This document shows positions 3,336 to 20,421 of a DNA stretch of 36,527 nucleotides, piece by piece. The translations under genes and the position numbers were made by a program. The notes beneath the pieces were generated by a model. That model saw nothing but the letters and a program-made list of their open reading frames with translations, did not search any database and was not told the DNA's origin. This stretch comes from a virus (taxonomy: Duplodnaviria > Caudoviricetes). Position 1 is the first letter of the stretch. Each line of letters starts with the position of its first letter. Where the stretch lies: IMG/VR virus record IMGVR_UViG_3300025513_001263, positions 1-36,527 of that record; one strand, given 5' to 3'.

Positions 3336-4952
3336 TCAGCCCCACACCCGCAAGGTGATCTGATTGCCCTTCGGCCGACCGGGTGCCGCACCCATGGCCA
3401 GCATCACGCGGTCGATACCCTCGTCCGGATAGATCAGGCGGACCTTCAGCACCCCCAGGCCCGGCGTCGCCAGCAGGTCGAGCCACTCGGCATCCATCTC
3501 GACGGCGATCACCCACTCCTCGAACGGCGTGCCGTCGGCGCGGACGGATGTCACGTCGAACAGCAGCTGAGCCACCGGCTCCAAGTCGGCCGGGTCGCGC
3601 AAGGCGGTGTCGATCTCGACCTCGCGCACGTTCGGCCACCAGCGATCGCGCAGGGCGGTGTCCTTGATCACGGCCTGTCGAAACTCATCGCGCAGCCGGG
3701 CCTCGTCGGCGGTATCCCAAAGTGCGCCGGCGAGGTTGCTGCGGGTGTGCGTCTGGTAAAGCCGGGCACCCTTCACGGTCACCCGCCACACCGGAACGCT
3801 GACCGACGGATCGCCCGGCTCGATCGACAGCACGTCGGACGCCTCGATCGTGCGGTCGGCAACACCGGTCGGCAGCTGCAGCTTGCCGATCTGCCAGGTA
3901 CCGAGCGGCCCCGGCAGCACCCATCCCGGCATCGAGCGCGCCAGGCTGTCGATGACAAGGCGGGTCGGTGTGCGGTCGGCGATGTAGAGGCCGACCGTCT
4001 CGGGTGCGGCGATCGTGGCGAAGGTGGCGCCGATCGACGCGACCGGGTCCTCGCGCCGGATCAGGGCTTCGATCAAGCCCGGTGCGGTGTCGAGGTAGCC
4101 GACACCCGGCACCAGATCGACGGCACCCTGCACGCCCACGGTCACCACGCCGCCGAAGCCCTGGTCAACCTTCCACAGCCCTCGGCCGAGGTCGGTCACG
4201 TAGTGCCCGGTCGCCGGGGTGGCGGCGTCAAAGGCCGCGCCGGATAGATCACCGTCGGTTGTCAGGCTGGCGTCCTGGCCGCGGTCGAAGATCCCGGTCA
4301 GCGCCTGATATTCGCCGTCGTGGACCTGCCCGACCTGGGCTGCAGGATTAACCCACGGGAACGGGATGTTCGCGGTCTGCAGGTCGCCCAGCGCCAGCGG
4401 CTTCGGGCGGTCCTTCAGATCGTCGGGACCGCCTTCGTAATCGGACGGGCCGGCGTTGGTGCCGGCGAACTCGACCGGCTGCACGTCGTTCTCCAGGTCG
4501 AGGCGGCGATCGTAGATCGGCACCGACAACCGGCTCGGCTGGTTGGCCGACACGCGCCAGGCCGGGGTTTCGGCGCGGCCGTCGAGCATGGCGCGGAAGT
4601 CGGTAGCGAAGCTGCGCGCCTCGCCCAGCGGCTTGATCTCGCCCCACCACACCCGAACCGCCTTGAACACCCAGCCGCGATACTGGTTGAAGTAGCCATC
4701 GGCGTTCGACAGGACCAGCTGCGACAAGCCGAGGCTGCCGGTCAGGCGGGCCGGGTCGGCGTACAGGTCGATGGCCATCGAGGGCGCTTCCAGCACGCGC
4801 GGATCGTAGGCCTGGTTGGGCTTGTCGGCGTCGGTCGATGGCCAGGGACGCATCGGCAGATCGCTGAGGTACAGGGTCACCGGTGCGTCTTCCGGATCCA
4901 CCAGGTCCAGCTCGACCAGATAGCCCATGAGGCGGCCGCGGCTCATGCTCAC
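3336..4952 (-). CDS. Tail-tip / baseplate hub-like protein
   Basis: 538-aa ORF directly after the tape measure; YEG..DDLKDRPKPLALG...N motif typical of Mu-like siphophage tail-tip proteins; alternative starts at 4946 or 4928. Confidence 0.7.
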   Translation of the reverse strand: MSMSRGRLMGYLVELDLVDPEDAPVTLYLSDLPMRPWPSTDADKPNQAYDPRVLEAPSMAIDLYADPARLTGSLGLSQLVLSNADGYFNQYRGWVFKAVRVWWGEIKPLGEARSFATDFRAMLDGRAETPAWRVSANQPSRLSVPIYDRRLDLENDVQPVEFAGTNAGPSDYEGGPDDLKDRPKPLALGDLQTANIPFPWVNPAAQVGQVHDGEYQALTGIFDRGQDASLTTDGDLSGAAFDAATPATGHYVTDLGRGLWKVDQGFGGVVTVGVQGAVDLVPGVGYLDTAPGLIEALIRREDPVASIGATFATIAAPETVGLYIADRTPTRLVIDSLARSMPGWVLPGPLGTWQIGKLQLPTGVADRTIEASDVLSIEPGDPSVSVPVWRVTVKGARLYQTHTRSNLAGALWDTADEARLRDEFRQAVIKDTALRDRWWPNVREVEIDTALRDPADLEPVAQLLFDVTSVRADGTPFEEWVIAVEMDAEWLDLLATPGLGVLKVRLIYPDEGIDRVMLAMGAAPGRPKGNQITLRVWG

Positions 4953-18664: not shown

Positions 18665-18710
18665 ATCGTGGAGACGGCGGCGGCGTGAAAACATGGTGGC
18701 AAACGTCACC
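18665..18710 (-). promoter_or_regulatory. Putative activator-dependent late promoter for head genes
   Basis: GGTGACGTTTGCCA, 26 nt, CACGAT (-10-like), 7 nt, ATG; same architecture as upstream of the endolysin. Confidence 0.6.
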
Positions 18711-18774
18711 ACGGGAAGCGTTTAAATGGGGAGTGTGGGAGCCCCTCAGAGCGGGGCCGGGCCGGGTCGATCAG

Positions 18775-18837
18775 GCCCGTGCGGGCGGATCGGACCCCGA
18801 AACCACCCTCAGCATGGTGGTTTCGGGTTGCACGGGC
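18775..18837. other. Intergenic inverted repeat (12-bp perfect inner stem, 8-bp outer stem)
   Basis: cccgaaaccacc 18796-18807 / ggtggtttcggg 18816-18827; gcccgtgc 18775-18782 / gcacgggc 18830-18837. Confidence 0.7.
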
Positions 18838-19047
18838 AAGAGGCCGTCCGCGCCGTCGCTCCGCAATAGGCCGCCATCCGCCTGCGGGTCGTTTCAGAAA
18901 CGTTTAAGAGATTTCAGGGCATCTTCGGAGGCCGGCGGTCGATCTTGGCCGTTCTGGGGCTTCCTACGGGCTCGCCAGCACGCCTGAAACGCCCTTCAGC
19001 CGGATCGCTGCCCGGATTTAAACGCTCTTAAAATCCGGCCTTTAAGA

Positions 19048-19076
19048 TTGACCCGGCACCGGGCGGGCACTATCTC
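19048..19076 (+). promoter_or_regulatory. Putative sigma70 promoter, convergent on muF
   Basis: TTGACC-17 nt-TATCTC with an AT-rich upstream tract; predicted start near 19082-19083. Confidence 0.6.
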
Positions 19077-19082
19077 AATGAA

Positions 19083-19197
19083 GCGACGCGCGTGACACGG
19101 TGAAATTCTCCCGGCCGTAGCACCGCCGCCGAGGCCCTCGGGCCGATAGCAGCGGGAGCGTCATGCGGGGTTACTGGGAGGCCCCGCCGCGCGTCGT
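19083..19197 (+). ncRNA. Putative structured ncRNA abutting the muF stop codon (strand inferred from the promoter)
   Basis: Closing stem 19084-19092/19188-19196, inner stems, and complementary loops CUCCC/GGGAG; no credible ORF. Confidence 0.65.
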
Positions 19198-20421
19198 CTA
19201 CTCCTCCCAGCTACCGAACAGAACCCGTCCGCGCTGCAGCAGGCGCCGCACGTCTGAGCCGTGAGTGCGACGGTATGACGTCACAAACGTTGCTTGACCG
19301 GTTGCGGTCGCTTTCACCGCCGCCCACATCGGCCCGCCGTCGCGCCGCACGACAACGACCGACACGTCACCATCCTGGACGATCAACGTCGGACGCGCGC
19401 CAAGCTCTGGCAGCAGCCGATAGTCGGCCGGCGTCAGGTCCGGATGCTCCCGCAGGTTCTTCGCCAGGGACTCTGGCGACAGGACCGCCACCGGGTTGCG
19501 GGCGCCGATCGCGTCGGCGATCGCCGACGGCAGGCGCAACACCGGCATGGCGTCGGTTGGCTTCTGTAGCTGGCGCGCGAAGTCCGGCGACGACACCACC
19601 TGGCGCAGGGCGGCGTGGGCAACGTCGGGGCGCGCGGCCGCCAGCTTGTCGAGCAGCGAGCGGGTCGCCCCGGCGGCAAGGCCCTGGTCGAGTGTGGCGT
19701 CACGCTTGGCCGCGTCGGCGGCGCGGCCGACGTGATAGCTCCAGCCCGGATCGATTCCCTCCGGGATCTGGATCTCCTCGCCGGTGCGCTTGTTGATCCA
19801 CGGCCGCTCGGTCACCGCCGGCGCCTCGGTCACCCCACCCAACTTGTCGGCCTCACGTGCCGACAGCTGGCGCACCGTGCACCGGCAGTTCCAACCGTTC
19901 GGCGGATAGTGGCTCGACCACCAGTCGTGATCGACCGGCAGCACCGTCCCATGCCACGCCAGGTGCTCGGGCCGCGTGCGGCGGTCCTGCACCGAGACAT
20001 ACCGCAGGAACGGCCGCAGACCCTTGGTGCGTTGGATCTGGTCCCACCGGCCGGCGGCGTAAGACGTGCGCAGGTTCACGTCGAAGATCGTCTTCAGCCG
20101 GCGCGGGCTGCCGAGCTGCACCAGGCGTTCCTTGCCGGTGAGGGGATCCACGACGCGCTGCCGGCCCCACCATCCCTTGGCCTGTAGCGTCGGCTCCAGC
20201 TCCCGGCGGAACTGCTCCAGCGTCGTGCCCTCGCTCAGCGCCCGATCGACAGCGCCCCGGATGTCCTCCAGCACGTCGAGCTGCATGGCCTTCGCGACGG
20301 TGAAGCTCCTGGCATGTTCGCCCTGCCACACGTCCTGCCAGGCGAACGACGGCTTGAAGCCTTTGGCGCGGAAGTAGTCAATCGCCTCCCGTGGCGGCAG
20401 CGGCTTCAGCTCAATCGGCAT
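19198..20421 (-). CDS. MuF (gp30) minor head protein with C-terminal PBECR2-like nuclease domain
   Basis: P.EAI.YFRAKG, AFTVAK-like, L...GWWG, RL.TIF..N, D.RTRPEH, YPPNGWNCRC, GIDPGW.Y; extension KNLREHPDLTPADY...AAVK.T..G...FVTSYRR. Confidence 0.9.
   Translation of the reverse strand: MPIELKPLPPREAIDYFRAKGFKPSFAWQDVWQGEHARSFTVAKAMQLDVLEDIRGAVDRALSEGTTLEQFRRELEPTLQAKGWWGRQRVVDPLTGKERLVQLGSPRRLKTIFDVNLRTSYAAGRWDQIQRTKGLRPFLRYVSVQDRRTRPEHLAWHGTVLPVDHDWWSSHYPPNGWNCRCTVRQLSAREADKLGGVTEAPAVTERPWINKRTGEEIQIPEGIDPGWSYHVGRAADAAKRDATLDQGLAAGATRSLLDKLAAARPDVAHAALRQVVSSPDFARQLQKPTDAMPVLRLPSAIADAIGARNPVAVLSPESLAKNLREHPDLTPADYRLLPELGARPTLIVQDGDVSVVVVRRDGGPMWAAVKATATGQATFVTSYRRTHGSDVRRLLQRGRVLFGSWEE

Follow-up and report, generated by a model that had tools for sequence, protein, structure and literature searches.

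A putative tRNA-shaped RNA antitoxin encoded opposite a predicted MuF-fused, colicin-like nuclease domain in a Mu-like phage

The window, by which we mean the whole stretch of 36,527 nucleotides analysed here, is a Mu-like transposable phage with its genes on the minus strand, among them those for a transposase, a transposition protein, a late activator, a terminase, the Mu portal, MuF, Mu protease I, the gpT capsid protein and tail proteins. Its muF gene joins the Pfam Phage_Mu_F domain (residues 53-183) to a putative C-terminal effector within a temperate-phage head module, as in MuF polymorphic toxins, and lacks the small immunity ORF directly downstream that belongs to those systems. Indeed, no minus-strand ORF of at least 60 aa with an ATG, GTG or TTG start lies between muF and the protease gene, as originally reported; the longest over the RNA element described below are of 29 aa (ATG) and 46 aa (CTG), and a 63-aa CTG frame sits 300 nt away, at 18706-18897. 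Of the three TTTAAA sites in the window (0.34 expected), two fall in 18700-19040, with related repeats; these are presumably the late-activator promoter of the protease gene, a role taken from phage Mu. A Thalassobaculum genome (L226) has the same protein domain and RNA as the window, which points to an alphaproteobacterial host for this phage. The features of the locus are as follows.

19048-19076, plus strand: predicted sigma70-type promoter (TTGACC at 19048-19053, N17, TATCTC at 19071-19076)
19083-19197, plus strand: structured RNA, model of the R1 family; 115 nt, convergent on muF, 93 bits; its four-arm cloverleaf contains a loop-loop pseudoknot
19083-19092/19188-19197, plus strand: P1, acceptor-stem-like closing helix; 8 of 9 pairs changed on both sides
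19097-19118, plus strand: P2 arm (ACGG/CCGU) with a conserved loop and covariation; CUCCC at 19108-19112 supplies the 5' strand of the pseudoknot
19120-19159, plus strand: P3 arm; 2 bp and a conserved internal loop, followed by a hairpin that varies freely in length and sequence
19165-19187, plus strand: P4 arm, 7 bp, stacked directly on P1; 6 of 7 pairs changed on both sides
19176-19180, plus strand: 3' half of the pseudoknot, GGGAG, in the P4 loop, with its partner CUCCC in the P2 loop
19198-20421, minus strand: muF (gpF) head-morphogenesis gene, 407 aa, flanked by the portal and protease genes
19201-19590, minus strand: PBECR-clade domain, a predicted RNase of colicin-like BECR fold, about residues 278-407 (AlphaFold, fold matches, conservation, ESM Atlas)

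The original prediction described a C-terminal extension of MuF and likened it to PBECR2. The extension is present, at about residues 278-407, but the PBECR2 identity is wrong: none of 15 domain members matches the PBECR2 profile (PF18810) at E 1, and true PBECR2 tails on other MuF proteins score ~100 bits and come with a different candidate RNA. No Pfam family reaches its cut-off over residues 278-407, MuF_C being the top hit at E 0.03, and the ESM Atlas neighbours of this stretch are the MuF_C, PBECR2 and PBECR3 clusters (0.91-0.93). The top five fold matches of the AlphaFold model (pLDDT 95) are all BECR RNases or toxin-antitoxin (TA) toxins, namely a Salmonella TA toxin, which is the best (Z 6.6), BrnT (Z 6.3, rmsd 2.9, 74 aligned), the colicin D tRNase (Z 5.7, rmsd 2.9, 83 aligned) and the CdiA-CT domains of NC101 (Z 5.6) and BWH57 (Z 5.1); these Z-scores (5.1-6.6) are modest, all below 8, and the support lies in the concordance among the matches. 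Foldseek against the PDB with the same model returned nothing at E 0.001, and a PDB sequence search with the domain gave no match. The architecture is that of a colicin-like BECR fold, with a helix that bears a His and a four- to five-stranded sheet whose fourth strand bears Ser/Thr. K321 and H326 lie at a helix ending near residue 325, with T381, S382 and R384 on the last core strand, and K321, H326 and T381-S382-x-R384 agree with the PBECR active-site pattern, a His in the helix and a Ser/Thr in strand 4, given in the accessible part of PMC5512222. Of 60 domains that have an R1 RNA beside them, 58 retain the His (it is absent, and the RNA kept, at L158 and L205), and the RNA is absent in all three domains without both Lys and His. 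What, then, might such a domain cut? Characterised colicin-like BECR proteins mainly cut tRNA (bioRxiv 10.64898/2026.08.28.747851, accessible part), and it has been suggested that PBECRs may target mRNA or crRNA rather than tRNA (PMC5512222, accessible part). The MuF tail is predicted to be a colicin-D-like tRNA-cutting nuclease. The domain family comprises 1459 clusters (50% identity, E 0.001); GenBank phages gave no match to the window's domain and four weak ones to another family member, and PADLOC reported nothing credible.

Directly after the muF stop codon lies the closed structured unit that had been proposed there, P1 ending on the base beside the stop codon. Folding of the single sequence is not significant (z of -1.5 on the plus and -2.5 on the minus strand), and the UGAC/GUCA helix of that fold is not conserved among homologues. 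The single-sequence fold and a strict promoter scan are weak by themselves; the support for the RNA comes from homologues. We collected R1 elements by pattern scans that ignored the protein, which gave at least 164 anchor matches and at least 127 elements parsed as distinct; 37 of the 164 were set aside as duplicates or unparsed, and L277 and L234 were dropped as chance matches. The anatomy is P1, the sequence YGAC, a 4-bp P2, one A, a P3 of variable length, a 5-nt linker and a 7-bp P4 continuous with P1, with five P2-loop bases paired to five P4-loop bases as a pseudoknot. The conserved, covarying structure that had been anticipated behind homologous genes was found: across 71 aligned elements, 96.7% of 2377 cells are paired and 26 of 36 pairs are compensatory, a degree of pairing above all 500 shuffles and all slid controls, and RNAalifold recovers the same nested helices unprompted. 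The pseudoknot count in this alignment is circular, the rows having been picked by complementarity; in a second set of 38 sequences with nine loop codes, aligned with a model without that helix (some loci from anchor scans, a few also in the training set), 182 of 190 pairs form, against a shuffle mean of 156, and 0 of 5000 shuffles reach 182. Conserved G-U pairs, which would be A-C on the muF strand, place the RNA on the plus strand. We also considered a small-peptide gene and rejected it, the internal lengths being spread evenly over the three frames (43/41/42).

R1 has no match in Rfam 15 at gathering score, whether for the window region or for sets of 20 and 13 loci, and ARAGORN does not call it as a tRNA. 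Among the matches listed, CCA follows P1 in 6 of 116 copies and a T-rich tail follows the RNA in 33 of 116; a terminator scan found none after the RNA in the window. The taxa among the matches listed include Alpha-, Beta- and Gammaproteobacteria, Desulfobacterota, Nitrospirota and others, and two query variants found no R1 copy in GenBank phages, plasmids or E. coli genomes. Four RNA runs from four studies, available as contigs, cover the whole stretch at the homologous locus L353, in a form from which start, strand and level are unreadable; one of them has a contig depth of 29.9 on the RNA side against 3-5, a quantity that cannot rank expression. Judged by its conservation between genomes, R1 is a real RNA family outside Rfam and the searched papers, tied to phage BECR nucleases.

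The promoter sequence first noticed ahead of the unit, TTGACC-N17-TATCTC, is in place, and P1 begins 7 nt past the -10 box. The strict scanner reports 0 sites here, the -10 box having no T at position 6. When scored with E. coli sigma70 weights (from general knowledge) at a threshold of 6 bits, 60 of 123 elements among the matches listed reach at least 6 bits just upstream of P1; the count is 1 of 123 both on the far side and further upstream, and 4.8% of shuffles score as high. The opposite-strand promoter is indeed conserved, as had been foreseen. Across elements, mostly 5-8 nt separate the end of the -10 box from P1. Orphan RNAs, which have no adjacent nuclease, also carry a promoter of at least 6 bits in 19 of 55 cases among the matches listed.

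How closely does the RNA follow the nuclease? Among 80 MuF loci chosen by an N-terminal motif, the R1 model matches 9 of the 11 with the same tail clade, the remaining two having a variant cassette; all 13 loci chosen by their tail protein, with downstream DNA, carry R1; and a survey of 30 genomes from a single genus found a convergent RNA at 8 of 8 domain matches, with 13 of 21 RNA copies standing alone. Short MuF genes have no cassette in that slot, in line with what had been expected, the one R1 match at such a gene (L046) being 200 nt away and reversed. A blind test for a promoter plus closing stem, with classes assigned by hand from tail comparison and the split-muF locus L048 left out, gives a significant result at 18 of 35 PBECR-type loci and at none of 36 others (0/25 short, 0/5 other-toxin, 0/6 degenerate); PBECR-type tails without a cassette occur at L017, L026 and L028. 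In terms of co-occurrence, these comparisons show the RNA to depend on an intact nuclease domain. At L048 itself (3430-3661), a split in muF separates the MuF part from the nuclease frame, and both the nuclease motifs and the RNA are intact. Elsewhere, L015, L025, L044, L054 and L075 have MuF tails that are ADP-ribosyltransferase-like, metallopeptidase-like or unassigned and no RNA cassette; in most of them a small ORF seems to follow muF directly, as in the classical layout.

The converse does not hold, as the genus-wide figures indicate. A pairing census of 68 distinct RNAs with at least 700 nt of downstream DNA, among the matches listed and with L211 counted by hand, divides into 33 that face a nuclease domain, 10 of them in ORFs without MuF, and 35 orphans. 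Where it is paired, the RNA is single-copy, downstream and on the opposite strand in 33 of 33 cases, tail-to-tail and within ~50 nt of the stop codon. Across 29 loci, RNA distance follows nuclease distance (partial r 0.28, 3 of 2000 permutations) and hardly MuF-domain distance (0.05, 565 of 2000 permutations), a correlation that could come from physical linkage alone between loci that are not phylogenetically independent. Arrays are instructive here: the three muF genes that stand in tandem at L211 all differ in their tails, and behind each comes an RNA-like unit of its own; L282 has two tandem muF-nuclease genes with different tails, each with its own RNA. A further RNA family of ~130 nt is common to L211 (2172-7173) and L282. 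Orphans are located in Mu-like prophages, in satellites and near TA genes; the complete phage G103 has an orphan RNA and no nuclease domain, 4 of 5 orphan-bearing genomes have no nuclease domain detectable anywhere, and the loop codes of the two copies differ in 4 of 4 tandem orphan pairs. We note several individual loci. At L341 (1450-1800) the RNA with its promoter is present twice, together with a third, promoter-like remnant, in an apparently chromosomal gap before a response-regulator gene; no nuclease is detectable in this roseobacter genome. Gluconobacter morbifer (L255/L358) combines one paired RNA with three orphans. L257 has a tRNA-like sequence with a T-loop motif just upstream of R1 at 3991, on the same strand, with no ARAGORN call, and L272 has an inverted partial copy of nuclease-coding sequence upstream of the RNA, possibly an artefact of assembly.

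Tails of the true PBECR2 type, and others that are PBECR-like, are followed in the same slot by different candidate RNAs. Behind the true PBECR2 tails of L008, L010, L014 and L020 come strong convergent promoters of 9.5-15 bits and structured units of 55-85 nt; L017 and L028, also MuF tails of the PBECR2 comparison, have no convergent promoter plus structured unit behind muF. At L018, L021, L027, L030, L032 and L034, a MuF with two PBECR-like domains precedes a convergent RNA of 55-65 nt, with a GUUUCGGACGU-like loop common to five of the six, which would form a separate family. Behind muF at L029 (3722-3796) and L031 (minus strand) is a convergent RNA with a canonical tRNA T-arm and a D-loop-like segment, and no anticodon-arm call; against the tRNA-clan model the L029 RNA scores weakly (23.1 bits, E 0.0098, below the curated cut-off). 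A 5-bp T-arm-like hairpin that stacks on a 7-11-bp closing stem is seen in seven of ten sister candidate RNAs, compared with 2 of 35 controls. The RNAs of L029 and L031 are, on their predicted structure, the clearest sign of a tRNA origin for this class of RNA.

Taken together, R1 is probably a trans-acting, tRNA-shaped RNA antitoxin of the MuF nuclease. The toxin rarely occurs without the RNA, the RNA often occurs without the toxin, it is lost with the active site, and there is one RNA per toxin variant, which is how an immunity gene behaves; a tRNA-shaped RNA beside a tRNase-type fold suggests an inhibitor that resembles the substrate. We posit that the cloverleaf RNA would bind the nuclease as a tRNA-shaped decoy and so act as its immunity factor. 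Host sigma70 would make the RNA without phage activators and so supply it in the lysogen, immediately after the DNA enters a cell, and while MuF is made late in infection; the RNA would protect the producer as well as kin with a matching RNA. The nuclease, in turn, would reach the next cell as part of the MuF in the phage head, and cells that have no RNA gene, or in which the incoming DNA is destroyed, would be slowed or killed by it. Virion delivery is inferred from the location of MuF in the head, where it is thought to be present at 2-3 copies; the accessible part of PMC12226406, from which this number comes, states no more on delivery. Orphan RNAs in other mobile elements and chromosomes could then be borrowed immunity. 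As the anticodon-like arm varies freely and the junction is invariant, the enzyme more likely recognises the core or elbow of the RNA. A wider scheme, to which we commit only tentatively, is also possible: PBECR nucleases could be polymorphic toxins with tRNA-derived RNA immunity, each clade having a cognate tRNA mimic under a convergent host promoter, with delivery by the virion, and with orphan arrays of different loop-loop codes collected by bacteria, satellites and rival phages.

Could the RNA do something other than inhibit? It may be a cofactor or processed substrate of the nuclease, forming a ribonucleoprotein with MuF that is perhaps packaged in the head. The co-occurrence would fit equally well, including the dependence on catalytic residues, the cognate RNA per clade and the conserved core with a free P3; however, orphans without a nuclease keep the structure and often the promoter, the RNA occupies the slot that holds a small ORF in other MuF toxins (89.4% of them in the accessible part of PMC5576092), and within the genus surveyed the nuclease was never seen without the RNA while most RNA copies stood alone, all of which makes this reading unlikely. 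Similarly unlikely, in our estimation, is a role of its own in anti-defence or host control, such as that of a decoy for host tRNA-cutting defence enzymes, with the RNA linked to the nuclease as a passenger. Orphans account for about half of the copies (they lie in Mu-like prophages, satellites and phage G103, and form one chromosomal tandem pair), most orphan-bearing genomes have no detectable nuclease, and phage RNA mimics of antitoxins are known (PMC5772629, accessible part). Yet a passenger would leave unexplained why the cassette is lost behind short or catalytically degenerate MuF (0/31 significant), why the position near the stop codon is fixed, and why each tail in the L211 array has a different RNA.

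The RNA had initially been offered as either a bound antitoxin or decoy or an antisense RNA to the 3' end of the toxin gene, and our results favour the former branch and weaken the latter. In a type I-like antisense scheme, convergent transcription, stabilised by the structured 5' unit, would silence the 3' end of a leaky muF in the lysogen. The geometry is convergent, and the missing terminator in the window and the limited number of T-rich tails would permit read-through, and in the window the unit is complementary to the 3' untranslated stretch of muF alone. On the other side, only 6 of 32 structured units overlap the nuclease ORF, and the one in the window does not. Moreover, neither the conserved pseudoknot, a tertiary contact, nor the invariant junction would be needed, and orphans have no pairing target; we regard antisense action as quite improbable. 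Finally, the element could act in cis on the muF mRNA strand as a terminator, processing site, ribozyme or small peptide gene. The minus strand does fold slightly better alone, and the 29-aa ORF crosses the element. Against this stand the G-U pairs, which would be A-C on that strand, the promoter signal on the other strand, the even spread of lengths over the three frames, and the occurrence of the element reversed or without muF, and we give a cis element very little credence. Of these readings, the bound, tRNA-shaped antitoxin is the one that we favour.

An RNA partner of MuF or PBECR is not described in the searched literature, which included few subscription journals; supplements of RNA-discovery studies may hold it unnamed. 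If the antitoxin reading is true, this would be a polymorphic toxin family with RNA in place of protein immunity, and tRNA-like RNAs would be used as enzyme inhibitors. Perhaps this also explains why many proteobacterial MuF extensions have no immunity ORF, a gap in the accessible part of PMC5576092, where the proteobacterial Ct_MAD extensions are left unexplained. R1 gives PBECR domains a first testable partner. The reach could be wide, considering the size of the domain family (the 1459 clusters above) and the presence of the RNA, absent from Rfam, across several bacterial phyla.

In a tRNA, the closing stem is stacked on the last arm, the second arm has 4 bp, one base links it to a third arm that is variable, a 5-nt linker follows, and the second and fourth loops are in contact. 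By topology, the layout of R1 is this cloverleaf, with the D/T-loop contact replaced by a 5-bp Watson-Crick helix; unlike a tRNA, it has no ARAGORN or Rfam call, no T-loop consensus and no 3' CCA, and the sister-clade RNAs of L029 and L031 differ from R1 in keeping a canonical T-arm. On the protein side, colicin D and the CdiA-CT tRNases (PDB 5znm, 1tfk, 5i4q) are the closest folds with known substrates, and differ in having immunity proteins and in being delivered by colicin or CDI routes. The PBECR and MuF-C domains (Iyer 2017, PMC5512222) are alike in being MuF-fused and solo phage BECR domains with His and Ser/Thr, and predicted RNases; the accessible part of that paper mentions no RNA partner, and no Pfam PBECR model reaches cut-off on the clade described here. 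The MuF polymorphic toxins of Jamet 2017 (PMC5576092, accessible part) share with our locus the MuF domain, the variable C-terminal effector and the temperate-phage head module, as well as cassette exchange and tandem arrays; their immunity slot holds a small protein ORF, whereas here it holds an RNA gene.

Two RNA-based systems come closer in the nature of the partner. The AbiF-RCd22 pair of a Clostridioides difficile prophage (bioRxiv 10.1101/2025.04.15.648962) is likewise a prophage toxin with a non-coding RNA, which there neutralises it in trans by binding; it differs in its Abi_2 protein linked to Cas13, its repeated abiF motifs and its anti-phage role, and the accessible part of the report states no virion link or tRNA-like fold of the kind proposed here. 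Type III TA systems (ToxIN, AbiQ and TenpIN; PMC5772629, accessible part) resemble R1 in pairing an RNase toxin with a structured, pseudoknotted RNA, direct binding being inferred for R1. The structured RNA of such systems thus has its counterpart here, with a putative antitoxin role. ToxI, as described in the same source, is a tandem repeat array upstream of toxN and co-transcribed with it; R1, in contrast, has no upstream co-transcribed array and is a single cloverleaf, downstream, on the opposite strand and with its own promoter, and its partner, unlike the type III toxins, is a BECR-fold domain on a phage head protein. Whilst gene layout and toxin fold place it outside the type III class, R1 most likely works like a type III antitoxin.
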